A program made the position numbers and the translations under genes. Below, in pieces: positions 1 through 32,568 of a DNA stretch of 52,558 nucleotides. Numbering within the stretch: the stretch's first letter is position 1; each line of letters begins with the position of its first letter. The notes beneath the pieces were generated by a model, which did no database searches, was not told the DNA's origin, and was given only the letters and a program-made list of their open reading frames with translations. Source of the DNA: Mesotaenium endlicherianum (lineage: Eukaryota); assembly GCA_009602735.1 (NCBI GenBank), contig WELA01002708.1:248001-300558 (forward strand). The letters are read 5' to 3'.

Positions 1-126
1 CTCCTCCTGAAGCCTCTTCCCTCTTTGGATCAGTCGTACAACCAGTAGTATAAACCCAATTAAAAAAACAGCAACAATAAAAGTGACTACTGCTTGAAGA
101 AGGATTTCGGGATTCTCTTTGGACAT
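1..126 (-). CDS. N-terminal fragment of a probable membrane-anchored sensor histidine kinase (runs off the window edge)
   Basis: Not in the ORF track. ATG at 126 reads MSKENPEILLQAVVTFIVAVFLIGFILLVVRLIQRGKRLQEE with no stop: one TM helix followed by a charged, coiled-coil-like start. It overlaps the end of the upstream membrane-protein gene. The kinase call is inferred from context (NarL regulator nearby); no catalytic domain is visible. Confidence 0.55.
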   Translation of the reverse strand, partial: MSKENPEILLQAVVTFIVAVFLIGFILLVVRLIQRGKRLQEE

Positions 127-746: not shown

Positions 747-797
747 AAAAAGGCCCCGGTTTTGCCGGGGCAAAATTACTCAATTTTAGGGCGGAAA

Positions 798-1301
798 CTA
801 GATAACTTTAATCCCCTTTTCGTCCTCTAAGATGGTCAGTCCAACTCTTTCCATTTCCAGCCCGAAAGGGATGCCTTTCGTACCAAGAGGATCGTTTCCG
901 CCACAAAAGGGAGGACAGGCTGTCCCGTAATTGAATGCCAGAATTTCGGCACCACCTTTATGAGGCACATAGAGGTTTTTATGAAAAAGACCATTTTCAG
1001 TCTTTTTCTCTTTTGTAGCTACCAGAACCACAGTTTGCCTTCCCCGCAGCTCAATATCCCCTTCGAAATCCTCCGGGTAAACACCATAGTAGACCTTAAT
1101 GCCATCCGCCCCGTGCTCGGACGCTAAACGAAGAAACTGTGTGATTTCTTCAATACCGAACCAGGTGCTTAAAGAATCAGGCTTCCCCAAAAATTGGGTG
1201 TTGGCTACCCATCTTTCTTTTTTGTAACGGCTGATAAGTTGGTCAACATGTTTGGTTCCGACCAACCGCCCGTTTTTCTGAAGAACTTGTGCTGTTGTCA
1301 T
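798..1301 (-). CDS. Hypothetical protein with a CPPxC motif
   Basis: 167-aa ORF containing DSLSTWF, GIKVYYGVY, GRQTVVLV and NYGTACPPFC; co-oriented with the membrane-protein and kinase genes. Confidence 0.75.
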   Translation of the reverse strand: MTTAQVLQKNGRLVGTKHVDQLISRYKKERWVANTQFLGKPDSLSTWFGIEEITQFLRLASEHGADGIKVYYGVYPEDFEGDIELRGRQTVVLVATKEKKTENGLFHKNLYVPHKGGAEILAFNYGTACPPFCGGNDPLGTKGIPFGLEMERVGLTILEDEKGIKVI

Positions 1302-1498
1302 TGGAATTAGTTTAGGTGAATAATACCACCAAACTATCCGACGTCATTGTAATAATACAGTTTCAATAATTTATAAAACAATTAATTACACATGTGTTAT
1401 ATATATAATATAATGTATGCCAAGAATTTCCGATTTTCGTGACAAATATTACCCTGTCATTGGAATAAAAAAACAATGCTTCCAGGGATAATAAAATA

Positions 1499-1514
1499 CC
1501 CCCATAAATGGGGG
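1499..1514. promoter_or_regulatory. GC-rich palindrome, candidate operator
   Basis: CCCCCAT-AA-ATGGGGG perfect inverted repeat in an AT-rich intergenic region upstream of the 167-aa gene. It could instead act as a terminator hairpin for the response regulator gene. Confidence 0.35.
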
Positions 1515-1546
1515 CGCAAATAAAAAATAATCGGGGAGGTTAGATC

Positions 1547-2200
1547 TCAATGATAGAATGCGATCATTCCGTTCAGGACTCCGTATAATACCAAAACGGG
1601 ACGGCTGTTAAGGTCAAGCTTTTGAAACAGGCTGTCCCGGTAATTTTCTACCGTTTTGAAACTAACCCCCATTTTCTCAGCTATCTCTTTATAGCTCAAG
1701 TCGGTACTGGCAAGTTGAATAAATTCAACTTCTTTCTTTGTTAAAATACTCTTGCCGTAAAATCCTGTCTTTTTATTAGAATGCTCTCGAAATTGGAAAT
1801 ACTCCTTTTTAACAAGGTCGCCAAGGTAAAAACCATATTTATGCACCGACACGATTGCTTTCTGTATAACGGAAGGATCAGATGACTTATTAATATACCC
1901 GCAGGCACCGTTTACAATCATATTGATGATCATATCCTCTTCGCCGTAAAAAGAGAATACGATAATTTTAATATCCGGATATGACAACAACAATTTCTCC
2001 ATGGTTTGTTGACCGTTCATTACCGGCATTGAAATATCTAAAAGGACAATTTCCGGTATACAGGTACCAGATATTTTTTTTAAAAGTTCTGCTCCGTTAC
2101 TTGCTTCCATTACAATCTGAATTTCATCAGTCGATTCAATCAGCATAGCAATACCCCTTCTGGTTACCGGATGATCATCTACTAAGGCAATCTTAATCAT
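1547..2200 (-). CDS. NarL/FixJ-family response regulator (REC + LuxR HTH)
   Basis: IALVDDH, LLDISMPVMNG, GYINK receiver motifs; LTKKEVEF...KEIAEKMGVSFKTVENYRDSLFQKL HTH. Confidence 0.95.
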   Translation of the reverse strand: MIKIALVDDHPVTRRGIAMLIESTDEIQIVMEASNGAELLKKISGTCIPEIVLLDISMPVMNGQQTMEKLLLSYPDIKIIVFSFYGEEDMIINMIVNGACGYINKSSDPSVIQKAIVSVHKYGFYLGDLVKKEYFQFREHSNKKTGFYGKSILTKKEVEFIQLASTDLSYKEIAEKMGVSFKTVENYRDSLFQKLDLNSRPVLVLYGVLNGMIAFYH

Positions 2201-2867: not shown

Positions 2868-4544
2868 ATGAAATCTCTGCCAACACTAACACCACAACAA
2901 GCTGGTGAGTTACTCGCATTTCAACGTGCTTCGAAACAAAGTGCAACTACTTACCTCAACCCTTCAGATCCCACACATCGAAAATTCATTGAAAGTATGC
3001 TCAATGCTGCCGGCAGAACACCGGCCAATTACCCATACCTCTATAAAGCACTGAACACGGGAGATTCATATAAAGGAGCCCCCGGCGTGGACAATGTACG
3101 CATGGTAGATGCAGGGAAAACTGCTGCCGGAAAAGCTACTGCAACCGTTTGGTCACGATCATCCAACGATAGCCTGATCAAAGGGGGTAATTTAATGGTA
3201 TTCGACAGTGATACCGGTGCACTACTGGCGCAGGGAGAGAATACAGCGGTGAAAAGAGGCTTTCTCGCTTGTCCTGCCAGGAGCGCTACCGCTGCACCGG
3301 CCGGAAAAAACCTTTCTCTTCTGTACATGGGGCACACAACAGATGCCAACGGGTCTACCCGTTTTTACAGTTATACCAATAAAGTTGCGGTAGCGCAGGA
3401 TGGCATCAAAGCTAATATTGCTATGCCTGTGATCCAGCATACAGGCAATGTAAACATTTGGATTGCAGTGGGCAGAGTAGCAGGTTCTCCATTTCCATCC
3501 AATACTGACTATATCTTTATAGAACCTTCCGCCAATGAAAATAATCCATATCTCATTGTTCCTTTTAAAGGTAATGTGGCGCTGAGCGGGCTTATTGACT
3601 TGCCCAGCCTTACCATTGCAGATCTCAGCACCAGTATTTTTGTAAACAATGGGCATGGCTCTACTGTCGAAATCACCAGAGCTACCCAATACACCACAGA
3701 TGCAAAGATGATTGGTGCTTTTTCAGTGGGTACTCCTGCCAATGTTTTGCAGTGGGAATTTCCCTATGATCAAAAGGGTTACCAACAAACAAACTCAATT
3801 GTATACAACTCTACTTCGCTGGGCAACGAAATTGATAGTTATTTCTATTTCGCATTTAATGGCATCCCATTAAAAGGCGGCGCTACTGCACCTCCATTTT
3901 TTGTCTGCAGTAAAAACACACCCGAAGACCCATCTATCAATTGCACGCAGATACCGAACCTGTATTTCTGGTGGCATTGCCTGGCCAAAGGCACATTAGT
4001 AACGCTGGAAGATGGTAGTAAAAAACCAATTGAAGCCATCAATGAAACCTTCAGGGTAAAAACCGGTACTAACGGAAGTAGTTTCGCAGTATGCGCTACC
4101 GCATTAGGGCGACATAGTTCCGATCCGGCAGCAGGCACCCGCAAAGAGATATTCCGGCTCACCACCGCTAATGGTAAAAGCATCACTGCTACCGAGAACC
4201 ACATGGTCTTTATGACGGTGGATAAGTGCAGAAGTATCAGCCATCTTGTTGCGGGTGACAAAGTAATGACCGATGAAGGCATGTCTACGGTAAAAAGCAT
4301 TGAAGCGATTGCTTACAACGATATGTTTTATGCCCTGGCACTGGGCAATGTAAAAGAACAAGCTGAAAAAAGTTTTCCGCACAATATGGCAAACTATTAT
4401 GCCAATGGAATCCTTTGCGGTGATCAGCTGGCAATGCGCCATCATTGCAATGAAGCGCACCATGATCTTGAATACATGCTGCCGCGCATCAAACAGGAAC
4501 TGCATACTGATTATGCATCCGCATTACATCACAAGCGCTTTTAA
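2868..4544 (+). CDS. Hint (Hedgehog/intein) domain protein; unknown N-terminal domain, Hint at about 3978-4424, short C-terminal tail
   Basis: CLAKGTLVTLEDGSKKPIE (block A), ITATENH (block B TxxH), NYYANGILCGD (block G-like, no His-Asn). ATG at 2868 is preferred over the GTG at 2799. Confidence 0.85.
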   Translation: MKSLPTLTPQQAGELLAFQRASKQSATTYLNPSDPTHRKFIESMLNAAGRTPANYPYLYKALNTGDSYKGAPGVDNVRMVDAGKTAAGKATATVWSRSSNDSLIKGGNLMVFDSDTGALLAQGENTAVKRGFLACPARSATAAPAGKNLSLLYMGHTTDANGSTRFYSYTNKVAVAQDGIKANIAMPVIQHTGNVNIWIAVGRVAGSPFPSNTDYIFIEPSANENNPYLIVPFKGNVALSGLIDLPSLTIADLSTSIFVNNGHGSTVEITRATQYTTDAKMIGAFSVGTPANVLQWEFPYDQKGYQQTNSIVYNSTSLGNEIDSYFYFAFNGIPLKGGATAPPFFVCSKNTPEDPSINCTQIPNLYFWWHCLAKGTLVTLEDGSKKPIEAINETFRVKTGTNGSSFAVCATALGRHSSDPAAGTRKEIFRLTTANGKSITATENHMVFMTVDKCRSISHLVAGDKVMTDEGMSTVKSIEAIAYNDMFYALALGNVKEQAEKSFPHNMANYYANGILCGDQLAMRHHCNEAHHDLEYMLPRIKQELHTDYASALHHKRF

Positions 4545-4554
4545 TACCCTACTC

Positions 4555-7500
4555 ATGGCCAACAGTCTTATCAAGAACCTGTTTTATGCCAGCCCCTATT
4601 CCGTTCCACCTCCCGGCGTAGGTACTACTGGTGTAACATTACAGACAGATCCGGCGCAATCGCCCACGCCTGCCGGCGTTACCAACCCCGTGCTGGTGAT
4701 CCGCTTGCGAATGGCGTCAAGCCCGGTGGTTATTGGCATATCTGCTACATCCGGTCCCGGTACAAGTGTAAAGACAGCTATCTATCAGCCGTCTTTTCCT
4801 TTATCCGCCACCGAGTCTTATATGATCGATATCATCTGGGTGCCGTCGGGCACACCGCCTGAAAATATCGACTGGAACAGTGCCATCGCATCTGCACCCG
4901 TAACAGCAGCCGAAGTGATGGTAGATAGCGCCGCTTTCAATGGCACTACGCTTGATGCAACGGTAACCTATGGTGCAAGCAGTGTTGCAGTAGGCGCACA
5001 GGTAAATGTATTCGCCCTATCAGGCGGTGTATATGTGAATATTGGCAGCGCGCAAACTCAGGGTAACAGGTTATCTGTACCTGTTACCACCACCGGGTTT
5101 ACTGCGCCATTCTCTTTCAATGCACAAGCCATTATTCCCACCAGCAATTCGGGAGGCGGTGCTTTTGCACCGCCTTTCAGCATGGGGCCTCCTACCGTGA
5201 TCAGCAATTACACCAGCGTACCACAAGCGGCTAAAACAATTGCTGCAGCTGTTTACAATGGCAAAAGCCTTTCTCTTTCCTGGAACCTCGATACCGTTGC
5301 CGGTTGCGTGAACCCCGATTCCAGCCTCATACAGGTACTTGCCAGCAACCAGGTTGTTGCCAGTTTTAAAGGAGGCCCTGTTTCTGCCAATATTCCGCTG
5401 GATATTTATGGCCAGTCAAACATTACCGTTCAGTTATCTACTGTAGCCAACAATATTGGCAGTACACCTTTGTCCTTCAGCCTGATCACGCAGGCGCCAA
5501 CGGTAACTAATGTTGTTGCTGATAAAACAGCGGGAAAAGTAACGGCAAATATTACAACGACCCCCACAGGTCTTTCCGCACAGGCTTACCTGATGGATGG
5601 AGATATAGTACTTGCCGGTCCTGTTGCACCCACTAGCGGCGTAGTGAGTTTTAGTTATAGTACATCAAAGTACAATGTAGAAGGAATGGTTGGGCTAAGC
5701 GTTGTTGCCAGCAGTGTATCTGCCGATGGAACAGTAACAGGCCCTGCAAGTAAGCCCGCCATTTTACTGGCCACCGCACCTATACTGCAATCCGCCCTCC
5801 TGCGCATCGATCCCGCAAACAACGCACAATGGAGAGCGGATATTGCCTGGAACCGCCTGCCTGATAGCGCTGCCAATGTTACTGCTTATACAGTTTCTGT
5901 TTTACAGGAAACGACTGTTATAGCTACGCAAACCATTTCCGGCACTACTGCCACACTTACGTTTGCCAAAACAGCAATCGACACCACCAAAACACAAACC
6001 ATACAACTCTTTGCTACCGGAATTACCGGCGGTAATAGCCCTGCACAAACTTTGTATGCGCTGTTTGCACCGCCATTGCTGGCTTCATTGGTTACAACAA
6101 AGGGACAAATCGGTATTACCTGGACCGTACCGGCCACGCTTCCGGCAGCCAATACATTGCCGGTAAGCTATCGCTCGATCATTGCATCCGGCGCTGCTAC
6201 TATTTATCGTGGAAACGAAACAACTGCTACACGCAGTGCCATTCAGCTTGCCGCCCTTTCTATTCCGGATACCGGCAACCTGGTGGCAATGGTAAATATT
6301 TCACTTGGACCGGTTACACTTCAGTGTGATCCGTCTATGGCTGCCACCTGTAGCGCCAGTCCGTTATTGACAGCACCCATTATCAACGCAACTACTGCTG
6401 CAGCCACTACCAATATAGCTACACTGAACTGGACCGCTGTTACAGGCGCCAATGCTATTGCCTATAATATCAATTTTACAAAAGGCAATCCGCAAACCAA
6501 TATTCCAACAAACGCTTTTGCATTAACAACAGCGCTTACGCCTGGAGCATTGCTCGGTTATACTGTAAGGGCAACCGGAACTTCAAACGGTGTTCCGGTT
6601 ACAGGGCCTCCTTCTAATGAAGCATGGGTGCCAACGAATATGGCCAATGTTTCCACAGTCCGCTTCACTGGTAGCAATACAACTGTGGAGTGGGAGCAGG
6701 TGCCAGATGCTGTATGCTACTGTATATCGGTATACGACAATGCAACGCCTGCCAACCAAGTGTATACCAATACCACCAGTGCCACCAGCGATTCGTTCAC
6801 TATTACGGCTGCCTCGGGGAAAGAATACACGGCCTATGTACAACCCATCATGAAAAATGGAACAGGTCTTGCCGGAACATCACTTAAACTATTCGCGCCA
6901 GCCTTATTCCTGAGCCAGCAGCCTGCTTCCGCCGCCTATCCATACATTTATCCGGCGCAAAGCATGTCGGTACTCGGTTCTGCAACCACAGGCCCTACGG
7001 CACAGGCCATTGTATTGTATTTACCCGAACTGGGTGCTGCATCCGGAGCACTGGGTACCACACCGATTGAAGTAGCGCCTTTCAAGATTGAACCTTCAGG
7101 AAATACTGCCTTACCCTATAAGCTAACCATTGCAGCAGATCCATTGGCCTGGACATTCAATACCACGGCTATCCGTGCCGCTCTGCAACAGGCCTATGTC
7201 AATTTCCTGAAGAATATTGAAACGCCTCCTGGGGGCACACTTGCCGGCGCCACGCCGTTTGGTATTTCACTCGTACAGTTGGCCATCGCCTGTTCATTAC
7301 CACAGACTTTTGCAGAACAACTCTATTACAATTTCGGATTCTCTACAGTTTCCACTGTGGGGTCGGGTTATGTAGACCTCAGGCCGGGCATGGTGTTGCG
7401 GGTAGCTGCAAGCGACTACATTGGCATTGCGCAAAGCGGACTGCCTTCCTGGATCAACGGTTATGCGGGCGCTACCATTCTCGATTTTGAAATAGGCAGC

Positions 7501-8139
7501 TATCTGTCGGGCACTAACTGGCGTACAGGGTTCGATGCATTTTTAAATACACTTACTTCGCAGGGCTCTCTTACCGTTTCATCACCGGCTGCCTCTACGG
7601 GTTCCGTTCAGGCCGGCCTTGCCGGGGCGGTTGACTTGTATTATCCGCAATTCATTCAACCTTTCTATCGCCTGTATTTCCCATCTGCCATCAGTAGTCC
7701 ATGGGGCAATGGATCAAATCTCACAGGATCGAATTTTACATTAGTAGCAGCGGGTAAATACAGCAGTTTGCAAAGCACAACAGTTGATCCGTCCAATAAC
7801 CCTACAGCGTATTTCCGCGGCAGAGCTATTGTAGAAGTGATGATCAAAGTATTGGTCAACGGAAGCGAAAGACTTGTACCCATCGGTACCAGCCTGGGCA
7901 ACCTGCTGGAGCAATTAGGCTTACGACCAGCATCTACATCACCGATATTGAAGCAACTTCGCGTTTATCGTTCCATCGTACCGGCAATTACCAGTACAAC
8001 TACTGCAACAGCATTGGGACCTCAACTGGAATTGTGTGTTGACTGGAATGGTTTGGCAGTATATGGAACAGGTAATGGGTTGAATGCCATGTCGGTTCCA
8101 TTAATGCCTGGCGACCAGGTTATCACAAATAAATATTAA
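4555..8139 (+). CDS. Large Thr/Ala/Ser-rich protein with FN3/Ig-like repeats and a C-terminal ThiS-like beta-grasp domain
   Basis: Recurring FN3-like W/Y patterns (LSLSWN, ADIAWN, IGITWT, ATLNWT...YTVRATG, TVEWE...YTAYVQP). C-terminus reads MIKVLVNGSERLVPIGTSLGNLLEQLG...LMPGDQVI. ATG at 4555 lies 10 nt after the upstream stop. Confidence 0.7.
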   Translation: MANSLIKNLFYASPYSVPPPGVGTTGVTLQTDPAQSPTPAGVTNPVLVIRLRMASSPVVIGISATSGPGTSVKTAIYQPSFPLSATESYMIDIIWVPSGTPPENIDWNSAIASAPVTAAEVMVDSAAFNGTTLDATVTYGASSVAVGAQVNVFALSGGVYVNIGSAQTQGNRLSVPVTTTGFTAPFSFNAQAIIPTSNSGGGAFAPPFSMGPPTVISNYTSVPQAAKTIAAAVYNGKSLSLSWNLDTVAGCVNPDSSLIQVLASNQVVASFKGGPVSANIPLDIYGQSNITVQLSTVANNIGSTPLSFSLITQAPTVTNVVADKTAGKVTANITTTPTGLSAQAYLMDGDIVLAGPVAPTSGVVSFSYSTSKYNVEGMVGLSVVASSVSADGTVTGPASKPAILLATAPILQSALLRIDPANNAQWRADIAWNRLPDSAANVTAYTVSVLQETTVIATQTISGTTATLTFAKTAIDTTKTQTIQLFATGITGGNSPAQTLYALFAPPLLASLVTTKGQIGITWTVPATLPAANTLPVSYRSIIASGAATIYRGNETTATRSAIQLAALSIPDTGNLVAMVNISLGPVTLQCDPSMAATCSASPLLTAPIINATTAAATTNIATLNWTAVTGANAIAYNINFTKGNPQTNIPTNAFALTTALTPGALLGYTVRATGTSNGVPVTGPPSNEAWVPTNMANVSTVRFTGSNTTVEWEQVPDAVCYCISVYDNATPANQVYTNTTSATSDSFTITAASGKEYTAYVQPIMKNGTGLAGTSLKLFAPALFLSQQPASAAYPYIYPAQSMSVLGSATTGPTAQAIVLYLPELGAASGALGTTPIEVAPFKIEPSGNTALPYKLTIAADPLAWTFNTTAIRAALQQAYVNFLKNIETPPGGTLAGATPFGISLVQLAIACSLPQTFAEQLYYNFGFSTVSTVGSGYVDLRPGMVLRVAASDYIGIAQSGLPSWINGYAGATILDFEIGSYLSGTNWRTGFDAFLNTLTSQGSLTVSSPAASTGSVQAGLAGAVDLYYPQFIQPFYRLYFPSAISSPWGNGSNLTGSNFTLVAAGKYSSLQSTTVDPSNNPTAYFRGRAIVEVMIKVLVNGSERLVPIGTSLGNLLEQLGLRPASTSPILKQLRVYRSIVPAITSTTTATALGPQLELCVDWNGLAVYGTGNGLNAMSVPLMPGDQVITNKY

Positions 8140-8146: not shown

Positions 8147-11100
8147 ATGAGCGCTGTTCCGGTATTCAACCAGGTTAACTCTTCCGTATATGTGTTGTCA
8201 ACACTCGCAGATACCGGACTGGTCAATTATTGGGCAGGATACTTTGCATATCCACCTGGTAGCCTGGGCACCAGCGCCAGTACAAGTACAGTGTGGCAGA
8301 ACATCGGTGGCTTTTATTTATTCCTAGATCAAATACCTTCCGACTGGACAAAGTTCGCAGCAGATTTAACGGCACTCCGTCCAAATCTGGGTCCGCCTGA
8401 TATCGTTCGTTGTGTGTGGATCAGCAATGCAGGTCAGTCTTATTTGCAATGGCAGATCACTGTAGCTTTTGCAAAAGCTACCGGAACGGGTGTCAACATC
8501 AGTTGGCAATTGATGCGATCCGTAGCTTTTAACATCGGCGCTTACCAATTATCGCTGACAGGATTGAGTGCACTCACTTATATCACCGATGAGAACGGAG
8601 GCGGTATCGGCTTTCCTGGCGGGGTGTTCAATGGCCCGGAAGGGGGCTATACTTTTCCAACAGCACAGCTGTCATTCAGCGGAACAGCACTTGGTGCATT
8701 CAGCAGCAGTATGACTATTGCAGCGCCTTCCAGCCAGGACCAGTGTGATCTGTGGAAAGCACTCAACATTGGTTTGCAATATGCAGCGGCACCTACGCCT
8801 TCTGATGATGAACCAGTTCCTCCTGTTAATGGAGATGATCCCGACCCGGCAGCTATGGCCTATGCAACTGCAACAAAAATATTGTTCATGCCTGTGTTCG
8901 CAAGGCAAACAGCAACCCTTAACCTCGGCATCCTGTTCGATCCATTGCTGCCACTGGTGGCTTCCCGCACTTCATTCAGTTTATTTCCTGCGGGAACAAC
9001 GGCTTCACCTGTACAGGAGAGTTTCCTGAGAACCACCCGCGGATACACTATTCAGTTAACGCCACTCAAAGCGAATGGGGTACTCCCCGATGCACGTTTT
9101 GTATTCGGCTATTGCCCGGTACAGGAAAGCCTGTCAGAAGAAGGATATCGTTATCATTTAAGTCCCGATGGTGCATTCCAGGCAACCATCCTCACTCCTT
9201 CGCAAAAAAAGAGTAAGCGCAGCACAACTACACCCCTGCCCAATCAATTATTATTGGGTTTGTCCGGATTGGAATACGCAAGCCTCGATGGCGCCAGTTA
9301 CATGATCATATTCCAGGGAAACAAACCGGCATTCATTCCTTATGTTCCGCCATCGCAATCACAGGCACCCGATATATCTAAAGCACTGACAGGAGCGGCA
9401 ACTACTTCACACCTCACTGTTATGTCGCTCAACAACCAGGTGGTTAACCCTGTATATTATGCGCAACCGCGCGAAGCGCCGCTCTTTTCCGGTATCGATC
9501 ATCGTACCGACAATATCCTTGATTTCAATCCCATGCCTGCTTTTACCTTTCCTTATAATGTGCAACAGCAGCCAGTTGTATTTCCCGTAGGCATTTACAA
9601 AGGACTCAGCAGTGATGAGAATGCACTTGCACGTGAAATGGAAAATGCAAGCCTGGCCCCCTACCGTAATTATTTTATCAGTAAACAATATGGTGTAACA
9701 GCCCATGCCGCCAACGCGGAAAACTTCCCCGTACCCAAACGACGTTTACGCAGCGTGAATGATCCGCTGGGTGTGACGCCACAAGGACTCGTAGCTGAAC
9801 TGACGCCCGACTATAAAAATTTCGATGGTCTCATCATGGGTAATATGCCCGGCACTAATTATCCCAAAGTAGACTTCACAGCTGTAGAAGGCATGTTCAA
9901 GCAAGCTTTGCAGAACAATCAATTGTTTTTTGTAGCAACCAACGCAGGCGTGCTTATGAGTGGCACTTCGGTACGGTACCAGCTGACAGAAAAAGACAAA
10001 CCCTTTCTGCTGGCGATGGGGGTAACGCAGGCTGTTATTGATGCCGTATACCTGGCTGTAAGCAGGGCCACACAGCCGTTTGATACGGAGGAGTTATTTG
10101 TAAACTGTATCCGTACTGCTGCGGGTAATGATCTCGGTTCTTTTCTCAAAGTAGCCGGCATACTCAAAGTGGAAATGGATGGATGGACTTTCCAGTTGTC
10201 GCCGCGCACCTGGCGTACCGATGCGGAGAGTCCAACACTCCTGGTTGCCAAATTCTGCAACCGCTCACTGAGAGACCTGGCCAATGATACCAGTAGCTGG
10301 TATTGGCCCGAAGTAGCTACACCTCAGAATGGAACGCTGACTCAAACACAAACAGTATTATTAAATATTTGTAAGGCGGCCGCTGCACCCGATGCAGCCA
10401 AACCCCTGCGCATTTTTTACGATACGGTGCTCAACGACAAAAACTGGAACGGCTTCTTGTTTCTGAATGCTCCGGTGGATATTTCAGAGATGCCCGATGA
10501 CCTGAAATTCTTAACAGCAGGTATTGACCTTACCAAATTCTGTGCACATCATATCGGTTTCTCACAAACGCCCTTCAATGTGCTGAATGGTGTTCCCCAG
10601 TTGCAACAGACGGCGGCATTCGGACTGATCAATTACGAAGACCCCATGGATCTCTACGCGGAACAGAGCATTCCATTTGGTTTTAAAACAACAAGGCTGC
10701 GGGTGCGTTTTGCCAATGCGGCCCTCGTAGATTTCTCGGCCGAAGTAGAACTCATGCTTAACAGCCTGTTAGGATCTTCATTAACCAAGCAAATAGCAGC
10801 ACGCGGAAATAACCTGATCATTGAAGGCTCTTACCAGCGTGTGGGCGGCGCACCCTGCTATGCATTTGCACTGAATGGGGAAAATATTTTCAACGCCAAC
10901 GATACGGTGCTTACAGACATCGAAGTATTATCGGTACAGGTGGTTAATGGTGGAATTACCAATTCTGTAAACGTGCTCACCAATTTTATATTGATGGGGA
11001 ATTTCAGGTTCCTGCGTATAGAAGCATTCGATCTGTTCTCTTTTGGTCCGGGCGAAGATACCGACGACAGGTTCCTGCGATACAATGGACTTGGTATTAA

Positions 11101-11851
11101 CATGCAATTCTCACTGGCTACACCGAAACAACAAATCTTTACGGTAAAAGAATCCAATACTGCATTCGACATGGTGGCCAGTCATCAACGGACATCCTCA
11201 CTGATGAATAATTTCCCATTAGCCATCAGCGGATTGGTTGCCAGCCCCAATCTTGCAGCGGAAGGCGAAAAGCCAAGTGGACAAACACCGGAAGACATGG
11301 GTTATACTTCTGTTGCAGCGCCACTGGAGCAAACACCGATGGTGCCTGGCTGGTATGGGCTGGTACTGACGCTGGACCTGGGAACATTCGGCGCATTGAC
11401 TGGTAGTGTAAGCTTTAAAATTTCTATCCTCGCCGCCTGGAGGAAAGGTGATTCGCAAACGAATGTACCAGTTTATCTGGGGTTGAAATTACCAGGTATA
11501 CCGGTGCTGGGCGGAAGTTTTCCTTTACAGGGCGTGTTGAAGATCGGTTTCCGGAATTTTCAATTCGAAACTTATACTACCGCACAAAACGAGCTCGGGT
11601 ACCTGTTACGGCTTCGGCGTTTTTCATTATCTGTGCTGGTATGGAGTTTCCCTCCCGGCAATAACAACATCATTTTATTCGGACAGCCGCGAAACCCGAA
11701 AGGTTCATTGGGTTGGTATGCAGCGTACAGTGATGACAAAGACGATACACAGGCAAAGACAGATCCATTATTATTAGAAAATACAACGCCACTACCGGAT
11801 CATGTGCAGCGGCGTTTAAAATCGGGCAGGCGTACGCCACCCATCGGGTAA
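8147..11851 (+). CDS. Large hypothetical protein (1234 aa) with a beta-strand-rich C-terminal part
   Basis: Long ORF starting 7 nt after the upstream stop; no recognisable catalytic motif or signal peptide. Confidence 0.8.
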   Translation: MSAVPVFNQVNSSVYVLSTLADTGLVNYWAGYFAYPPGSLGTSASTSTVWQNIGGFYLFLDQIPSDWTKFAADLTALRPNLGPPDIVRCVWISNAGQSYLQWQITVAFAKATGTGVNISWQLMRSVAFNIGAYQLSLTGLSALTYITDENGGGIGFPGGVFNGPEGGYTFPTAQLSFSGTALGAFSSSMTIAAPSSQDQCDLWKALNIGLQYAAAPTPSDDEPVPPVNGDDPDPAAMAYATATKILFMPVFARQTATLNLGILFDPLLPLVASRTSFSLFPAGTTASPVQESFLRTTRGYTIQLTPLKANGVLPDARFVFGYCPVQESLSEEGYRYHLSPDGAFQATILTPSQKKSKRSTTTPLPNQLLLGLSGLEYASLDGASYMIIFQGNKPAFIPYVPPSQSQAPDISKALTGAATTSHLTVMSLNNQVVNPVYYAQPREAPLFSGIDHRTDNILDFNPMPAFTFPYNVQQQPVVFPVGIYKGLSSDENALAREMENASLAPYRNYFISKQYGVTAHAANAENFPVPKRRLRSVNDPLGVTPQGLVAELTPDYKNFDGLIMGNMPGTNYPKVDFTAVEGMFKQALQNNQLFFVATNAGVLMSGTSVRYQLTEKDKPFLLAMGVTQAVIDAVYLAVSRATQPFDTEELFVNCIRTAAGNDLGSFLKVAGILKVEMDGWTFQLSPRTWRTDAESPTLLVAKFCNRSLRDLANDTSSWYWPEVATPQNGTLTQTQTVLLNICKAAAAPDAAKPLRIFYDTVLNDKNWNGFLFLNAPVDISEMPDDLKFLTAGIDLTKFCAHHIGFSQTPFNVLNGVPQLQQTAAFGLINYEDPMDLYAEQSIPFGFKTTRLRVRFANAALVDFSAEVELMLNSLLGSSLTKQIAARGNNLIIEGSYQRVGGAPCYAFALNGENIFNANDTVLTDIEVLSVQVVNGGITNSVNVLTNFILMGNFRFLRIEAFDLFSFGPGEDTDDRFLRYNGLGINMQFSLATPKQQIFTVKESNTAFDMVASHQRTSSLMNNFPLAISGLVASPNLAAEGEKPSGQTPEDMGYTSVAAPLEQTPMVPGWYGLVLTLDLGTFGALTGSVSFKISILAAWRKGDSQTNVPVYLGLKLPGIPVLGGSFPLQGVLKIGFRNFQFETYTTAQNELGYLLRLRRFSLSVLVWSFPPGNNNIILFGQPRNPKGSLGWYAAYSDDKDDTQAKTDPLLLENTTPLPDHVQRRLKSGRRTPPIG

Positions 11852-11867: not shown

Positions 11868-13253
11868 ATGGCAACAGGTGTTGTAAAAGTAACCGTAGTA
11901 GACGTTGGACAGGGGCAATGTACGTTCGTGGAAATTTATAACACGGACAGCACCCCTAAACTCATTCATGCACTTCTTTTCGATTGTGGAAGTGATAAAA
12001 AAAGCGATGAAACTTCAACCAACCTCCAATATATTGCTACCAAGGTAGCAGGTATGGATACACCTGCCTTTGATACCATTTTTTTCTCCCATAGTGATAA
12101 AGACCACATTAGCCTCACCTATGATCTCCTGCAGGAATTCCCTTCTTCGAAAAAACCAACCGTAAAACAGGTTTGGTATGGAGGCGCCCGCAGCAGGTAT
12201 ACCAAATACGATTTCAACATCCTGGATTACCTTGAAGAAGAAGGATATTGCACAAAATCCAATCTCAAAACAACAGGAAGTAATTACACCGGATACGACA
12301 CAACTTCTAAAAGTTTCACTCAATATCTCTGGAGAAGCGCCGATAATTCGGTTGCAGTATATGCAATCGTTTCTAATGTATTGTCGGATGATCCTGACTG
12401 GGACGAAAATGACCTGGATGTAGAAGGAAAAACCGCAGAAGCATTGAACCGGGTATCCATGGTCTGCTGGCTTTCTTATGCAGGTGCTTCTTATGTAATC
12501 TGTGGTGATGCTACTAATAAAACGATGGGGGCCATAAACACTCGGTTTACTGCCGGCACTACCGTATTTAATAAAAATAACATGACAACACTGCCCCACC
12601 ACGGAAGCCGGGCCACGGGGTTTGCAGTGAAATCATCAGAAGTTGCAAGCAGTACAGCCAAACAGGTGGTAAGCGATTTTGCAGGACTTCTTAAGTCGAA
12701 GACCCTGACAATAAGTTCTTTTGAAAAACACCGGCACCCTTCCCTGGAGTTGATGAATGCATTTCCGCCTACCATTACTACTCCTTTTGTAAGAGATCCC
12801 AGGCTTAAGGAAACAAATGCCCACAGACTGATAGGCAATGTCGATATCGCATTAACACAGCCCAAAGGATGGAGTCTCCTGAAAACATATTACTCTTTCG
12901 ATACTACTTCCTGTATGTTCAGCACCAGGTATTCCCAGTTAATGACATGGTTTTCCTACAACCTGGGAGCTTCGTCAGTGGCCGTAGCAAAAGGTCCCAC
13001 ATCATCATCAGTAGCTATCAATGCATTTGCCTGCTGGCAGTATGAAACACAAACAAATGGGAACTTCCTCTTAGGTGGTTATGCCAATCTTGCATTGCCA
13101 CTTGTGCTGTTTACAGCAGGAACCACATCTATGGTTGCATCACAACCCAATCCCGCCATCGCATCCGTCCGGGTAAAAGATCAATCGAAAAAAGTACGGC
13201 AGCCTGCTCATACGCAATCGCAATTTTATGATCAGTTAAAACAGTTTCGTTGA
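11868..13253 (+). CDS. ComEC/Rec2-type metallo-beta-lactamase-fold hydrolase, paralog 1
   Basis: DVGQG, LLFDCGS, SHSDKDH, CGDA, PHHGS and HRHP motifs; no membrane competence domain. Confidence 0.85.
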   Translation: MATGVVKVTVVDVGQGQCTFVEIYNTDSTPKLIHALLFDCGSDKKSDETSTNLQYIATKVAGMDTPAFDTIFFSHSDKDHISLTYDLLQEFPSSKKPTVKQVWYGGARSRYTKYDFNILDYLEEEGYCTKSNLKTTGSNYTGYDTTSKSFTQYLWRSADNSVAVYAIVSNVLSDDPDWDENDLDVEGKTAEALNRVSMVCWLSYAGASYVICGDATNKTMGAINTRFTAGTTVFNKNNMTTLPHHGSRATGFAVKSSEVASSTAKQVVSDFAGLLKSKTLTISSFEKHRHPSLELMNAFPPTITTPFVRDPRLKETNAHRLIGNVDIALTQPKGWSLLKTYYSFDTTSCMFSTRYSQLMTWFSYNLGASSVAVAKGPTSSSVAINAFACWQYETQTNGNFLLGGYANLALPLVLFTAGTTSMVASQPNPAIASVRVKDQSKKVRQPAHTQSQFYDQLKQFR

Positions 13254-13311: not shown

Positions 13312-14739
13312 ATGGCAACAGGCATTGTAGTAATAAGCGTATTAGATGTAGGACAGGGACAATGTACGTTTGTAGAGATCTATAATACGGCGAGCACCCC
13401 TAAAATCATTCATACGCTTCTTTTCGATTGCGGAAGTGATAAACAAAGTAGTGAAACGCAAACAAACCTCCAATATATTGCTACCAAGGTAGCAAGTATG
13501 GATACCCCTGCCTTTGACACTATTTTTTTCTCCCATAGCGATAAAGACCATATCAGCCTCACCTATGACCTCTTGCAGAAATTCCCTTCTTCAAAAAAAC
13601 CAACTGTAAAACAGGTTTGGTACGGAGGAGCCCGCGAAAAGTACACCAAGTCTGGCTTTAATATTCTGAATTACCTTGAAACGAAAGGATATTGCACATC
13701 TTCCAATATCAAAACAACAGGAAGCAATTACACCGGCTACAATACAACTTCTAAAAGTTTCACAGAATATCTCTGGAAAAGCACTGATAATTCGGTTAAG
13801 GTATATGCGATCGCTTCCAACGTATTGTCAGATGATCCTGATTGGGATGATAATGACTTGAGTGTAGAAGGGAAAACAGCAGAGGCACTGAACCGCGTAT
13901 CCATGGTCTGCTGGCTTTCCTATGCAGGCTCTTCTTATGTGATCTGCGGCGATGCCACCAATAAAACAATGGGTGCCATAAATAATCTGTTTACCGGTGG
14001 CACCCCCGTATTTAATCAAAATCTGATGACAACATTGCCCCACCACGGTAGCCGGGCCACAGGGTTTGCAGTCAGCTCATCAGCAACAGCAAGCCTTACA
14101 GCTATATTAGTAGTAAGCTCATTCTCTGCTCTGTTAAAATCTAAAACAATAACTGTCAGCGCCTACCAAAAGCACCGGCATCCATCATTGCAGTTAATGA
14201 GTTATTTTATCCCTACTATAACTACCCCAATCATAAAAGACCCCCGATTAAAAGAAAAAAACTCGCATCGGATTACGGCTTATCTCGACATCAATGTGGG
14301 AACGGGCACAGGCATGTTCCTCGTCAGAAATCTACCTTATTCATTTGAAACATTAATCAATACTTTAACAACGCGGTATTTCGACGGATTTCCCACATTC
14401 TCTTATAACATTGGTCTCTTTACTACAGCTAAGCCATCTCAGGGACTGGTAACCTCAACTACCGTAATCAATGGTTTTGCATGCTGGCAGTTTGAAACAC
14501 AAACAAATGGGGACTTTCTTTTAGGGGGTTATGCCAATCTTGCATTACCACTTGTGCTGTTTACAACAGGAGCCACATCTTCGGTCGCATCGAAATCCGG
14601 TACGACCGACTTGTTGGAAGCAATTACAGTAACAAATCCGCCCATCGCAACTGTTAGGATAAAAGACCAACCACAAAAAATATGGCAACCTTCACAAAGG
14701 CTATCGCAATTCCATAACCATTTAACACAGTTTCGTTGA
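13312..14739 (+). CDS. ComEC/Rec2-type metallo-beta-lactamase-fold hydrolase, paralog 2
   Basis: Same motifs as paralog 1, with long shared nucleotide tracts (e.g. aacctccaatatattgctaccaaggtagca in both), indicating tandem duplication. Confidence 0.85.
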   Translation: MATGIVVISVLDVGQGQCTFVEIYNTASTPKIIHTLLFDCGSDKQSSETQTNLQYIATKVASMDTPAFDTIFFSHSDKDHISLTYDLLQKFPSSKKPTVKQVWYGGAREKYTKSGFNILNYLETKGYCTSSNIKTTGSNYTGYNTTSKSFTEYLWKSTDNSVKVYAIASNVLSDDPDWDDNDLSVEGKTAEALNRVSMVCWLSYAGSSYVICGDATNKTMGAINNLFTGGTPVFNQNLMTTLPHHGSRATGFAVSSSATASLTAILVVSSFSALLKSKTITVSAYQKHRHPSLQLMSYFIPTITTPIIKDPRLKEKNSHRITAYLDINVGTGTGMFLVRNLPYSFETLINTLTTRYFDGFPTFSYNIGLFTTAKPSQGLVTSTTVINGFACWQFETQTNGDFLLGGYANLALPLVLFTTGATSSVASKSGTTDLLEAITVTNPPIATVRIKDQPQKIWQPSQRLSQFHNHLTQFR

Positions 14740-14752: not shown

Positions 14753-17700
14753 ATGAGTTCAGCAAATGTATATACAGCGCTCAATAGTTATATTCAAAAC
14801 AACTCTATTGATTTATGGGCTGCAGCCAACGGCTCGCCCGACCTGGCAGGCATGCTGCCGGTATTGGGGCTATTCAACATCAACGCGGCTTATACACTTA
14901 CATTTGTTGTCTTAACGCAAAGTCCCAGTGGTGCAAGCGTTCGCCTCACGGGAAGCGGTTCTTTCAATGGTGCAAACCCATATACGGCAAATGCAACCCT
15001 GCAATATATACAGGAGGGAAATGTTTTTTCATTGGAACTGGCCATCACTACAGACTGGATTATTTCCAATTTCTTTTCTTCATTGCCCGATACGCTGATG
15101 CAGGTGCCAACGATTCAGCAAGGTATTTTATGGTATCCTTCTGTACTGAATGGCATGACAATACGAACGGCTGTTTTCTCAGGAAAAACAGGGGAAACTA
15201 AATTAACGCTCACCGGTTTCTTATTACAGCCTAATAATCCGAATCTTTTAAACAGGACCCCGATGGTCGGACCCTGGCCGCTTCGTTTATCAGGGTCAGT
15301 AGAAATGCCCACCAGTACCCGCAGTTATCCATTGATCAACCTCGATGCAAGGGGAAATGATACCATTATCAACGTTGCAAAAGAGCAAGGGATCAGCGGT
15401 CCGGATGCTATGGGCCTCTCTAATCCCGGTCTTACACTACTGGTACAACCACTGAAACCACAGCAGCCTAACAGGATCGCTTTTTCAACCATCGAGTTAT
15501 TTGCCGATTTTGCCCTGGGTGAGATCAAAGGCCGTATTGCCACCCTGGTTCTTTCGAATGATGACGTGTGGAATTTTACTGTCCGCTTCAAGAAAAACGT
15601 ATTTACATTGAGACAGGGCCTTGCGCAGCTTACCCGCATTTTTGGCGTGGAACTGCCCATCCCTATGAACTTCCCCGTACTCACTGATTTTTATGTTGGG
15701 GAAATCGATATGGATCTTCAGAATACAGGTTCTAATGCAATCCCTTCCTTCTCTTTGTTGAATCTGGCTGTTACCATACGCTCAGAAAAAACATGGGACC
15801 CTCCTATTCCTTTTGTTACGATTGACAAAGTTGGCACACGATGGGTATGGGGGTGGTCGATGGTGAACGGGGAGGGCGGGCCAGAAAAAAGATACACACT
15901 CACCGGTTCTGTATTTGGCACCATCAATTTCGGCGGCAGTAACGGGCAAACAGAATTATTGCCTGCTCCACCTCCGCCGGACGATGCACCGGATGACGGT
16001 AGCCAGGCAGTTGCTGTAAACGGCAACCCGGTATCGCTCAATGTAAACATGTCGTTGCCCAATTTTATCATCTCCGGCTCTCTTGCAGATGGTAGTTATA
16101 TCCCCATCGGCAAAGCATTGAATTTTTTCTTTAAGAATGATGGGCCTCCTACCGGACCACAAACAATGAATGTTACTCGGTTAAGGTTCTCCGCAGATCC
16201 CATCGGCCAGAATTATTTTGCAGAAGCCGCCATACTTTTTGGTGACCCGGTAAACCCAGACCCGCAACAGGGATGGGAGATCGATCTCTATGTCATTACC
16301 ATTATTCTCAATCAGCTCGAATTCAATATTGCCGTGAATGATGGTAAAGTATCGGGCGGGATCAGCGGCACTTTTTTCCTGGACCAGGGTGACCCCAGCG
16401 ACTACAAAATGCCGCGGATCATGATCAGCGCGGAATATCCGCCGCAACAGCCCGATGCACCGGAAGGATGGACACTCAGCGGTCATCTATACCCCGGCAC
16501 ATCCATCAGCGTTACAAAACTGGTTTATAAATTTATTTATGGCGGAGGTACAACCCATCCACCCCGCTGGGTTCCGGATATTCTCATCGACCGCCTTGAT
16601 GTTGTTTTCACCACTGGTTCCAAAACACCAACCAGAGAAGTAAAAGCATCTTACACTTTCGGCGGCACCATTTCCGTTCGCTGGGAGCCCAATATTTTCA
16701 ATACCCCGCTAAAGATCAACGCTTCAGCCAGCATTGACCTGGCAAAACCTGCTACAACAGATACACCCAGCGGCAAGCTAACAGGTACTTTCAGTGTCAA
16801 CAAGATCCAGCTCACTGCAAGTCTTACTTTCGGTGTTCCGGAACCTACTTATCTTTTCAAAGTACAGTTCGACCAGCTTTGGCTGCAGGCCACCACATCG
16901 TGGCGGGGCGAACAGAACAACCGCCACCAGGTTGTTTCATTGCAGTTAGGCGGTGTTACACTGGGTGATATACTGGAATACCTGGTGAACCTTGCTGCAC
17001 CTACCATTGGCTTCAAGCTCGATTCGCCCTGGGATGTATTAAAGAAAGTGGACCTCTCCCGTTTTGTGCTGACCATTGATCCGAAAGAAAATATCGTTGA
17101 ATTTGTATTCAATGCCAATGTTGACCTGGTGATTGCACAACTCGATTCAATTGGTGTGCGGTACAGTAAAAAAAGCGGCGACGGGAAAGTAGACCTGATC
17201 CTCACCGGCAGTTTCCTCGGACAGCAATACACCAACGATAAGCCATTAAGCTGGGATGTGGTCAATGATCCGCCTCCCGCTGTTCCTGGGAAAGGACCAA
17301 GCCTGGTCAACCTTCGTTACCTGGGTCTGGGCCAGAGGGTAACATTCAGCGGTATTACCCCCAGTACCGTTGCGGATAGTATTAAGAAGCTGAAGCAGGA
17401 CATGAAGAAGCCGCCGGACGATGGTAATCCATTGCCCAGCACTATGTTGTATGCTGCCAATAGCCAATGGCTGATCGGACTGGATATACAACTGATGGAG
17501 ACTCTTGATCTCGCGATCATCTTCAACGACCCCAAACTATATGGCTTATCCATTGCATTGAGCGGTGAACGTGCCGGACCATTGGCCGGCCTGCGTTTTG
17601 AAATACTCTATAAAAAGATCACCGATGAAATAGGCATGTACCGCATTGAGTTCCAGGTACCCGATATGTTCCGCACCATCCAGTTGGGCGCGGTTTCTAT

Positions 17701-20700
17701 CACACTGGGCATCATCGTAATTGAAATTTATACCAACGGTAATTTCAAAGTAGACCTTGGCTTCCCGTATAACCGCAACTTCGACCGTTCCTTCAGTTTG
17801 CAGGCTACCATCTTTATTGGCCGTGGTGGTTTTTACCTCGGCGTATTGAATGGCGATACTTCCACGCAGGTACCACGTATTTCCAACGGTAATTTCTCAC
17901 CTGTTATAGAACTGGGCATCGGCATCTCAGCAGGTGTGGGAAGAGAGATACGCGCCGGCATTCTTGCAGGCGGCGCTTTTGTAGAGCTGCAGGTCATATT
18001 CCAGGGCGTGCTCGCCTGGTTCAATCCCAACAGCAGCGGCGCTGCTCCCGCCAAATTTTTCAAATGCCAGGGCGTGGCCGCCATTCATGGAAAAATATAT
18101 GGCTCGGTAGATTTTGTAGTGGTCAAAGTATCCATTACCCTCGAAGCCTATGCACAGGTGAGCATTATCTATGAATGTTATCAACCTATGCTCATTGAAC
18201 TGGAAGTGGATGTAAGCGCCGAAGCATCGATCAAAATATTATTCGTCAGAATTTATTTTTCATTTGGCGTACACCTAAGCCTCGATTTCACCGTTGGCTC
18301 CGCCGAACCCACGCCCTGGATACTCAGCAACAACAGCAGTGGCGGCAGGTCCTCTGCTGCACTGGCAACTACCAGCCATCACCTGCTGAACCCCAGGCGT
18401 CCTGTTGCGTTGAGAACCAACAAGCACCGGCGTTTGCAAGTGCTTCGTGAAGCGCATGTAATGACCATGGGGTTGCAGGGTACGGCTGCTTTGCAGGAAT
18501 ACAACCTGGTATGGCATCCCACCAATAAAGTTTTCCCTGACTCACCACGCAATGCACACCTTACCTTATTGCCGGTATTCACCATTAATAGTGTACCGGT
18601 TAACTGGGATGGAACAACACCGGTAAACAGCAACCCCAATTACCGAAGCGCTTTTGTTCTTTTTGCAGACACCGGCATGTCCACCTCAGCCGTAACAGCG
18701 GCTGACTGCGCCATACGCAGTGCGGCCCACAGCGCCATGACGGTAAGCGATACCGATACCAGTTTGCTCGCTGCCGATATCCTCACACAAGGCTTGCTTT
18801 TATATGCCATCCAGGCATTCCCGCGCGACCCTGCAGAAGGCAACAATATTACGGCCTGGCAGATCACGTCCTTACTGGATCAGCTCAATATGCCCGATAC
18901 CATGTCGGGCGGACTATCTATCGACAACCTTAAAACATTCTTCACAACCAATATCAATCTCTGGATCAGTGGCGATATTACACCCCGTCCTGATGACAAA
19001 TCTGCCATGGTATTGCCACTCCCTCCATTTGTGGGATGGACATCTCCGCAGGGTGGCACGATTGATTTCAGCACTAAGAATAAGATCGGTCCTTGGTATG
19101 AATGGGGTATCTCACAATTACTGGGTAGTTATTTCCCGGTAGGTGGAGACAACAGTAAGAAGCCGGCGCAGGACGATCCCTCCACTTACGAATCCTTCAC
19201 CAGTTTCATGTTCCGCGACTTTTGCCTCATCCTTATGCAGAACGGTATTAAGGAGATGCAGAAGCAGATGAATAATACCACGGTTACCGTAACGACTGTG
19301 AGCAGTGTAGTGCAAAACCTGGAACAAGTAGCAAAGACACTGCCCAATGCCAGCGTGCCATACAGGATCTGTTCGGGAGACACAGTTGAAAGCGTAGCGG
19401 AAAGCCTGGGTGCAACGGTTGAAGAGCTTACATTCCTGAACGATCACCTGCAAAGCGACCTTGAAACATTACCCGTTGGCACACCCCTTACCATTAAGCT
19501 GGGCGTTCCGCCCGAAGTATTGGCTATGGACAACGCCGGTATTTCGTTTGCCGTGACTCAATGTACATTAGGCACACTGGTTCACCAGGCCGCTCAAAAC
19601 GATACCCTGCAAAATATTGCCAGCCTCTTCAATGTAGCAAGCGTTGCCACTTTACTCGCCTACCAGGATAAAGCCTACCCCGTACTTTCTTCCGGTCCCA
19701 ATATCCTGGCCCCTGGAAACAGTTTCGATCTGCCTCAGCAAACATTTGTCAATGCACCTGCCGATTTTGTTCAGCTGCGTGTCGCAGGTGTTTTCTTTGC
19801 ACGTTACCTTGATGCATCCATATTGAAAGACACGGCTCTTCCTGATATGGCCAACTGGTATGTGCAGGCCATTGCCGAGGTGAACCAGGACCTGTTGAAA
19901 CAATTGTTCCCCGAGCAAAAGATCCCTTCGGTCATTGAATTACCACCGGGTCAGGTTTTATCGGTACCGAATGCCTATCAGAATGCCTACAATATACTCG
20001 CTAATCGTAACAATTATACCACTGTTGCAGGCGATACACTTTATCGCATCGGGCTGGCGCTCGTATTCCAGCAGGATTTCGGAACTACTACCCCACCAGG
20101 TATTACACAGTGGCCTACATTCCGGGCAGGCGTTACATCCACCGGCACACAAAGCTGGTCTATCCCCGCATGGCAAGGAATGATCATTGAATCCGGAACA
20201 AACATTGAATCGCTGGTACGCCGGTTGATTGTAAACGCAAGCTGGATAAGCATTATACCGGTGCAACCTTCAAAAGGCACATGGTCATACGACTGGGATA
20301 AAGTGGCCGTATGGTTATCGACAGCAAAAATCATTGCACCGCTCGCCAGCATCACCGTACCCAATGCAACAGTAGTTTCAACCACCCCGCTCAGCTTCAG
20401 CATACTTTCGACAAAATATGGACTTACTGTTACCGACGCAGCCACGCGTCTTAAAAAATTAAACGGTCTCTATGCCAGTGGCACCGTGCTGAAAGTGAAA
20501 TTATTACCGGCGCAGGATATCACCGTTCTGGTGAATGCAGTACTGCAAGGCGATAGTTTTACATCCATCGTGAACCAGTCCTCACGAATGTTGCTCTCAG
20601 GATTACGTCTGCCATCACTGACAACGGATGGAGGCGGACATACGGTGCCTGATCCTGCCCATCCTTCTCCACTGTATGATCTTACTGGTCAGCAGTTCAA

Positions 20701-28766: not shown

Positions 28767-28788
28767 AACCAAACCTAAACAGCATATC

Positions 28789-29301: not shown

Positions 29302-29307
29302 GCATAT

Positions 29308-30246: not shown

Positions 30247-30271
30247 CCGCTCTTTTGTTGATATTTGGATC

Positions 30272-31971: not shown

Positions 31972-31973
31972 TC

Positions 31974-32522: not shown

Positions 32523-32568
32523 CAAAATCTTTACATAAGATTCCTGATATTTGTTCATATCATTCGTT

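Follow-up and report, generated by a model that had tools for sequence, protein, structure and literature searches.

The window analysed here comprises 52,558 nucleotides of contig WELA01002708.1 (assembly GCA_009602735.1, filed under Mesotaenium endlicherianum; positions 248,001 to 300,558 of the forward strand). It encodes a protein of 3972 amino acids (aa), below called the giant protein. This protein forms the central part of a mobile gene cluster that has not been described before and that occurs in many bacterial phyla. One gene position of this cluster, the enzyme slot, is taken by three unrelated types of predicted nuclease. The open reading frame (ORF) of the giant protein had been noticed in a sequence-only reading of the window and is real; the peptides quoted in that reading are present in its translation. 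The gene order of the cluster is Hint gene (optional), FN3 protein A, protein B, enzyme slot and giant protein, with gaps of 7-58 bases between the genes from A onward. In the window the slot holds two tandem genes for enzymes of the metallo-beta-lactamase (MBL) fold. The features are:

2868..4544, + strand: Hint-domain protein, optional, with an unassigned N-terminal part and a C-terminal Hint domain (profile matches)
4555..8139, + strand: protein A, a variable number of FN3-like repeats and a conserved core of ~410 aa (homologue scans)
8147..11851, + strand: protein B, 1234 aa, core partner gene (78 of 93 loci)
11868..13253, + strand: slot enzyme 1, putative ComEC-type MBL-fold phosphodiesterase with intact metal-binding motifs (profile and motif alignment)
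13312..14739, + strand: slot enzyme 2, tandem paralogue ~70 % identical to slot enzyme 1 (sequence comparison)
14753..26671, + strand: giant protein, 3972 aa, colinear with 120 listed homologues
14753..17299, + strand: aa 1-849, beta-meander repeats in units of ~145 aa, strands and a short amphipathic helix (AlphaFold2 model, internal repeat, hidden Markov model (HMM) matches to DUF6603 proteins)
17300..18337, + strand: aa 850-1195, barrel-like curled sheet, conserved more strongly than any other part and placed where DUF6603 proteins have the DUF6603 domain
18338..18517, + strand: aa 1196-1255, basic, poorly conserved linker (homologue comparison)
18518..19342, + strand: aa 1255-1530 (275 aa), conserved domain, fold unassigned (homologue comparison)
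19355..20902, + strand: LysM array 1, about six repeats with inserts (Pfam and HHalign)
20915..22792, + strand: conserved middle region of ~630 aa (homologue comparison)
22799..24304, + strand: LysM array 2, about ten degenerate repeats (HHalign)
24305..26668, + strand: C-terminal module, nested Ig/FN3-like sandwiches with helical inserts (model pLDDT 91.5, pTM 0.83)

A conserved operon with an exchangeable enzyme

A search with aa 650-1200 as query, admitting proteins of 2184-6951 aa, yielded 366 relatives among 1913 candidates, of which 120 were listed. The closest among the matches listed is 99 % identical and is labelled Hydrobacter penzbergensis by its source. The length lies between 3700 and 4130 aa in 113 of the 120 listed homologues, and for each 200-aa segment of the giant protein a match is present, in unchanged order, in 74-77 of the 77 most distant homologues. 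The entire architecture is therefore conserved across phyla (Bacteroidota, Proteobacteria, Acidobacteriota, Chloroflexota and Gemmatimonadota). With the beta region as a profile, 3146 cluster representatives were matched at E 0.001, of which 1366 reached E 1e-30 or better; these counts include fragments, and the best 150 clusters were inspected. A sequence search of the PDB gave no match for the giant protein or for alignment A2. Viral contigs gave 0 cases among 71 pattern matches, phage records gave none, and PHROGs had no match to the giant protein.

The operon was compared over 93 loci (13 from genomes and 80 from metagenomes, near-duplicates included). Protein A was seen in 51 and protein B in 78 of these, both counts being partly limited by flank length, and the Hint gene in 10 of the 27 loci that reach upstream of A. 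Protein B matched no known family, and its relatives are automatically annotated 'putative hemagglutinin'. The evolutionary distances of B and the giant protein correlate (Spearman 0.80, 63 sequences); homology of the B C-terminus to the repeats of the giant protein was considered and rejected (HHalign at most 5.7 %). Protein A varies from 409 to 1459 aa, with fn3 matches in all six scanned homologues and none in the window copy. For the N-terminal part of the Hint protein no family match was found. Its Hint domain (2868-4544) begins with Cys and ends in ANGILCGD plus a tail of ~50 aa, similar to Hints of the Hedgehog/Vint type. Accessory domains of the system are of extracellular type (LysM, FN3, LamG, Ig), and Pfam and NCBIfam revealed no NTPase or helicase domain in the giant protein, A, B or Hint.

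Protein A is missing from some distant versions, in which small two-domain proteins take its place. In Lysinibacillus only B and a giant protein beginning at the barrel-like region are present, and in one relative (G022) the C-terminal part of B is fused to the barrel-like region. These arrangements indicate that the core consists of B and the giant protein from aa 850 onward, without LysM. The fusion in G022 is followed by genes for an N-acetylmuramoyl-L-alanine amidase and a small membrane protein (L135:2120-3337), possibly a lysis pair and a single case; another locus (L057) has an M23 peptidase gene upstream of A. On a Nostoc plasmid (L123; 7053-11030, 25398-27758) the giant protein lacks both LysM arrays, a LamG domain is part of protein A and a LamG protein is encoded downstream.

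The slot contains an MBL in 60 of the 93 loci, a DNase-I-fold EEP enzyme in 25 and an HNH pair in 1; it is empty in 2 and cut off in 5. MBL and EEP occur together in none of the 93, and slot profiles detected tandem copies in 11. The slot enzymes are predicted to be nucleases; the catalytic motifs are intact in both the MBL and the EEP enzymes. The MBL motifs HxDxDH, GD and HH (H75 D77 D79 H80, G213 D214, H244 H245) are invariant in 39 of 39 aligned sequences. The best PDB matches of the MBL slot genes, weak ones, are to ComEC, for which the accessible part of one source describes nuclease activity of the MBL domain (PMC8579336). Slot content was placed on a tree of the conserved region of the giant protein, with 83 rows (the window plus the loci, minus cut-off loci and identical rows), made by a quick search with SH-aLRT support only. 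On this tree the slot changes 6 times, where 3 would be the minimum; at least 2 changes for MBL and at least 3 for EEP are forced by starred branches.

In Burkholderia sp., Azospirillum, Mycetohabitans and G219 a separate slot gene is absent and an unrelated domain of ~550 aa is fused to the N-terminus of the giant protein. This enzyme-like fusion would place the cargo at the start of the sheet. Longer MBL fusions were seen in 0 of 7993 candidates, which is weak evidence, and a complex prediction of aa 1-520 of the giant protein with the second MBL, in which alignments were not used, scored 0.00 and is counted neither way. The Mycetohabitans copy (M. rhizoxinica, a fungal endosymbiont; plasmid pBRH02, L120, 389-15968) has its giant gene split just before the barrel-like region. 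Upstream of B, fused-cargo loci encode a family of proteins of 230-270 aa with an internal repeat (L124:10177-10872, L126:9441-11022, L120:389-1147, L133:17946-18671); these gave no Pfam match, and one member looks secreted. The MBLs of the clade of the window end in a conserved, basic RLxQF-like motif after a Pro/Ala-rich tail (13100-13253, 14600-14739). Similar Arg-rich stretches lie in B (11750-11851) and in the linker of the giant protein (18338-18517), and the EEP enzymes have no RLxQF-like motif. These basic stretches are possibly a docking or cleavage signal.

Architecture of the giant protein

The amphipathic beta region of ~1190 aa that had been proposed from the letters alone is borne out by an AlphaFold2 model of aa 1-1200 (67 sequences; mean pLDDT 87, pTM 0.56). 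It predicts one continuous meander, nearly all antiparallel strand and ending at aa 1181, with a short helix roughly every 145 aa. Two repeat blocks of the region align mutually (HHalign 94.7 %). In the single sequence, strand periodicity exceeds that of shuffles only in aa 601-800 (z 3.9) and aa 1001-1200 (z 5.4), with z 0.7-1.4 in the remaining four of six blocks. With family-averaged hydropathy, 35 of the 46 model strands show a face contrast of at least 1.5 KD units, a count made by hand, with the more hydrophobic face chosen post hoc and no shuffle control. The final three strands are the extreme case (aliphatic face +3.3 to +3.4, polar face -1.4 to -1.9).

The last 335 residues of the beta region curl about one turn in the manner of a porin barrel. 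Residues 850-1184 superpose loosely on nearly whole porins in VIA (maltoporin, Z 13.2, root-mean-square deviation (rmsd) 6.2, 248 aligned; OmpT, Z 13.1, rmsd 8.2, 225 aligned), and aa 385-788 match wider barrels (Z 8.4-10.8). We read the model as a single sheet whose curl tightens toward its end. The likeness to outer-membrane porins is that of a predicted model at rmsd 6-8, the giant protein lacks their signal peptide, and the shared curl demonstrates no function. Foldseek returned only generic beta-rich rows (TM at most 0.14 in the PDB) and nothing informative from the viral set. No RBG chain was among the top 50 VIA rows for the 1-1200 model; as these rows were filled by aa 850-1184, this excludes nothing.

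The MBL and EEP families also include lipid head-group enzymes (sphingomyelinases and phosphorylcholine esterases). It may be asked whether the sheet is a lipid-conducting groove, its hydrophobic inside carrying lipid, the slot enzyme trimming phospholipid head groups and the LysM arrays holding the machine on the wall while membrane lipid is stripped or moved. One aliphatic face does run along most strands and is strongest on the final three, and there is a partial match to the lipid-wrapping belt of ApoB100 (Z 10.3, rmsd 25.4, 318 aligned). A groove like that of TamB, AsmA or VPS13 was also what the sequence-only reading had suggested as a possibility, and of this the continuous amphipathic sheet is supported by the model. 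AsmA-like/RBG bridge proteins (TamB, YhdP, VPS13) have a long continuous amphipathic meander of repeats with a short helix, and the strand repeats and crossing helix of the model resemble the RBG description in the accessible part of PMC10345924. In the same part of that source AsmA-like proteins are inner-membrane anchored and periplasmic. The giant protein, in contrast, occurs in monoderms, carries LysM arrays and stands beside a nuclease-type gene. Its highest 19-aa hydropathy is 1.79 (at aa 972), no N-terminal membrane anchor was found, and a crude screen saw a signal-like N-terminus in 0 of 46 giant ORFs. The AsmA, TamB and Chorein profiles of Pfam matched neither the giant protein nor its 14 fragments nor 43 homologous beta regions, and the slot can be occupied by an HNH pair. 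Since the hosts include monoderms and the core genes show neither a membrane anchor nor a signal peptide, an envelope lipid bridge of the TamB type is a poor fit, and we consider lipid conduction rather unlikely.

A basic linker follows the beta region as had been claimed (median 69 aa and 15 % R+K in 260 homologues). The two LysM clusters were likewise found again. PF01476 scores 41.8 bits (E 1e-10; cut-off 20.9) and shows a single clear repeat, and a single-repeat LysM HMM recovered 2; most repeats are degenerate. All 16 repeats picked by eye match another LysM repeat profile from the family of the giant protein (HHalign 70-98 %), while all 9 control segments stay at or below 1 %. The arrays are predicted from these matches to bind peptidoglycan or chitin. 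They are short or missing with the scaffold retained in Nostoc, in Lysinibacillus and in 5 of 223 full-length homologues, which shows them to be removable inserts. Near aa 2540-2546 the gene is naturally split in 5 of 93 loci and in Tistrella. For the C-terminal model the structure search found no specific relative (best Z 7.5).

LysM repeats, an Ig/FN3-like C-terminal module and the hemagglutinin label on relatives of B could suggest an ordinary large adhesin with incidental neighbours. However, the N-terminal third is a continuous meander and not a row of discrete Ig or beta-sandwich domains, the architecture is fixed across phyla, the operon with its enzyme slot is fixed as well, and an export signal is lacking. 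The operon already largely refutes this explanation, which we regard as very improbable.

Genomic island and spread of the cluster

The operon lies, together with two-component genes, on an island of ~29 kb bounded by 22-bp repeats, for which the following features were recorded:

87..2200, - strand: divergent regulatory genes within the island (membrane protein, 167-aa protein, NarL/LuxR response regulator)
27337..27358, no strand: 22-bp repeat at the 3' end of tRNA-Pro, with a second copy ~1.5 kb left of the window start
27338..27412, - strand: tRNA-Pro(ggg), likely integration site (tRNA call)

No integrase was recognised by eye among the listed island ORFs. Among the other genomes of the genus, 1 of 36 encodes the giant protein; in the phylum the count is 5 of 401, which includes the genome of the window and one weak match. 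Carriers include Chitinophaga eiseniae, Pseudomonas putida and Tistrella mobilis. It is present on 9 plasmids, its hosts include monoderms, and two Acidobacteriota copies nest within Bacteroidota copies on its tree. The distribution is patchy and the cluster is mobile.

The 167-aa protein (798-1301, -) has a CPPxC motif near its C-terminus and adjoins the membrane protein, a histidine-kinase-like gene and two response regulators (87-773 and genes immediately left of the window), a cassette that we take to resemble the peptide-signalling cassettes of Bacteroidota. It may control the operon. A promoter scan of 2150-2950 gave 0 sites; in two other loci (L007 and L008) a response regulator also adjoins the giant gene. 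Among 617 flanking ORFs of at least 70 aa only a collagen-like cluster recurs (3 loci), and the flanking ORFs scanned (94 of 107 selected) are mostly housekeeping. To the right of the tRNA (27360-33450) lies a housekeeping block with dihydroorotase, glycosyltransferases, GmhA and GmhB.

Possible function and relation to known systems

The constant scaffold, the removable sugar-binding arrays, the exchangeable enzyme and the horizontal spread together form the pattern of a conflict system, and for this reason a released particle is favoured. Domains of the outside type make action on another cell more likely than phage defence, and an operon with an exchangeable enzyme gene points to protein cargo. 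We tentatively propose, with somewhat less than even confidence, that the cluster encodes a released wall-binding particle that engages a membrane via its barrel-like turn and delivers an exchangeable, likely toxic enzyme into other cells. The giant protein would be the scaffold, assembling with A and B, and the slot enzyme would ride at the N-terminal end of the sheet. The LysM arrays would bind peptidoglycan or chitin and, with the FN3 arms, select the target. The barrel-like turn would then insert into or open onto the target membrane, through which the enzyme would pass. Release of the particle could be by lysis or by an unlinked route.

Several observations weigh against delivery. A conserved immunity gene was not found: the slot gene abuts B and the giant gene, and no small gene recurs in the flanking ORFs. 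Neither conserved lysis or secretion genes nor an export route linked to the operon were found in the flanks, unlinked routes not having been searched; lysis-type genes stand only beside L057 and G022. The crude screen saw a signal-like N-terminus in 0 of 64 MBL, 23 EEP, 57 B and 46 giant ORFs (190), which leaves export without an explanation; a producer would also have to be shielded from the enzyme that it makes. The slot has been swapped only a few times, in step with clades, and is less polymorphic than the tips of classical toxins. The HNH pair is PtuB-like and known from a single locus, and no slot gene is present in 2 of 88 informative loci or in Lysinibacillus. The fused ~550-aa domain gave no Pfam match and, for the two tested, no PDB match; by eye only we take it to carry motifs like those of GT-B glycosyltransferases, degenerate in Mycetohabitans. 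The lipid head-group enzymes among the MBL and EEP folds, mentioned above, count on the same side, as do matches of the slot enzymes to anti-phage effector profiles: the MBLs match LmuA (E 2e-12) and profiles of reverse transcriptase (RT)-associated MBLs, and the HNH matches Septu PtuB (E 2e-31).

These matches can also be taken to mean an intracellular anti-phage system, in which the slot enzyme would be a suicide nuclease kept inactive on the scaffold until infection. The absence of signal peptides and the patchy, mobile distribution are in agreement with this, and an autoinhibited MBL DNase is described as a defence effector in the accessible part of 10.1101/2025.09.03.673762. That example would equally show how a producer could manage without an immunity gene. 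The effectors matched are those of Lamassu (LmuA-MBL), DRT (DRT-associated MBL) and Septu (PtuB), whereas their sensor and motor partners are lacking in the giant operon. In PADLOC the slot enzymes alone match, the core genes (giant, A, B, Hint) matching no system model. The core proteins have no NTPase or helicase domain, the 94 scanned flanking ORFs are mostly housekeeping, and ~16 LysM repeats with FN3/LamG arms suit the cell exterior. Phage defence thus seems unlikely to us. About equally unlikely is display on the surface of the producer itself, with the complex on its wall or biofilm matrix and the enzyme breaking down DNA or phosphoesters outside the cell, either as food or to remodel the matrix. 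An immunity gene would then be unnecessary and the extracellular-type domains would be accounted for; in a distant relative (G035; L132:9891-11339) the slot MBL has, by eye, a lipoprotein-like N-terminus, unlike the 64 screened MBLs. Against this, 0 of 87 slot enzymes of the main loci look secreted, and display would need far less than a scaffold of 4000 aa, a partner of 1200 aa and an amphipathic, barrel-like turn.

With delivery as the preferred reading, several known machines can be compared. Tc (ABC) toxins and Rhs cages combine a spiralling beta sheet and exchangeable enzyme cargo without a Sec signal. Their cargo is C-terminal, whereas that of the giant system is N-terminal or separate. 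An Rhs shell was the first Foldseek row for the 1-1200 model, but at a TM of 0.12, and RHS/YD, SpvB and TcA domains gave no match in Pfam and NCBIfam scans. Polymorphic toxin systems share the combination of a constant part with exchangeable enzymes of unrelated folds (here MBL, EEP, HNH and the fused domain); they differ in having a C-terminal toxin tip and an adjacent immunity gene, whereas the giant system has a separate or N-terminal enzyme and no immunity gene was found. The best functional analogue, as far as the accessible part of its description goes, is the umbrella toxin particle of Streptomyces, built from several proteins, with a giant scaffold of degenerate repeats, arms that bind carbohydrate and a toxin that can be exchanged (PMC11062931). 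Umbrella loci are actinobacterial and place the toxin within the large protein, whereas the giant system spans many phyla with the enzyme usually in a separate gene; shared domains were not detected.

A relation to DUF6603 had also been suggested beforehand. Remote homology via the N-terminal repeats upholds it, whereas the family profile itself (PF20248) gave no score in the giant protein, its 14 fragments or the genome. Four weak lines connect the families. Profiles of the N-terminal repeats match 3 of 10 fetched DUF6603 proteins (L031, E 8.5e-10 and 2.3e-18, colinear from the N-terminus; L038, E 1.6e-8; and L032). PF20248 scores a sub-threshold 13-15 bits vs a cut-off of 27 in 2 of 43 homologues, at the end of the barrel-like region. 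This end aligns weakly with the end of the DUF6603 alignment (HHalign 37 %, P 3.5e-4, 50 columns). Finally, an Atlas cluster with 23 % DUF6603 members is listed at 0.87, as a lead only. The giant protein is thus a remote relative and not a member of the family. Its barrel-like region sits where the DUF6603 domain sits in DUF6603 proteins. These differ in size and content (13 ORFs found, 1100-2250 aa; no LysM in the five scanned fully), and the genes downstream of them do not match the later segments of the giant protein. As with the giant gene, the enzymes encoded upstream of DUF6603 genes vary (MBL, EndoU or subtilase, seen at 3 of 10 fetched loci). In these loci (L029-L038) DUF6603 genes lie in their own operons of large uncharacterised genes with an upstream MBL, EndoU, subtilase or DUF6402 gene. 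One of these operons (L031) also holds tail-collar and endosialidase-chaperone genes.

No literature was found on DUF6603 (PF20248, IPR046538), and none describing the operon, in searches whose scope ended before subscription journals and supplementary tables; large comparative-genomics supplements could list the operon. The accessible parts of PMC3482391 and 10.1101/2025.01.14.632903 do not describe it. The core parts (protein B, the barrel-like region and the middle and C-terminal modules) match no characterised family; parts and operon are new and their function is inferred. A bolder proposal, which we consider doubtful, is that of a new class of protein-delivery machine, in which one chain of ~4000 residues would combine LysM targeting, a cargo rail (the beta meander) and a single-chain barrel-like membrane pore. 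Together with A and B it would bring an interchangeable enzyme, a nuclease or one resembling a glycosyltransferase, into the cells of bacteria or fungi, and the operons of DUF6603 would be the wider branch of this machine. If enzyme delivery is true, the cluster would represent a widespread route unrelated to type VI secretion systems (T6SS), extracellular contractile injection systems (eCIS), Tc toxins and umbrella particles, with a natural position for cargo exchange. If lipid movement is true, it would be an RBG-like conduit outside the diderm envelope. Either outcome would provide a first testable function for DUF6603.

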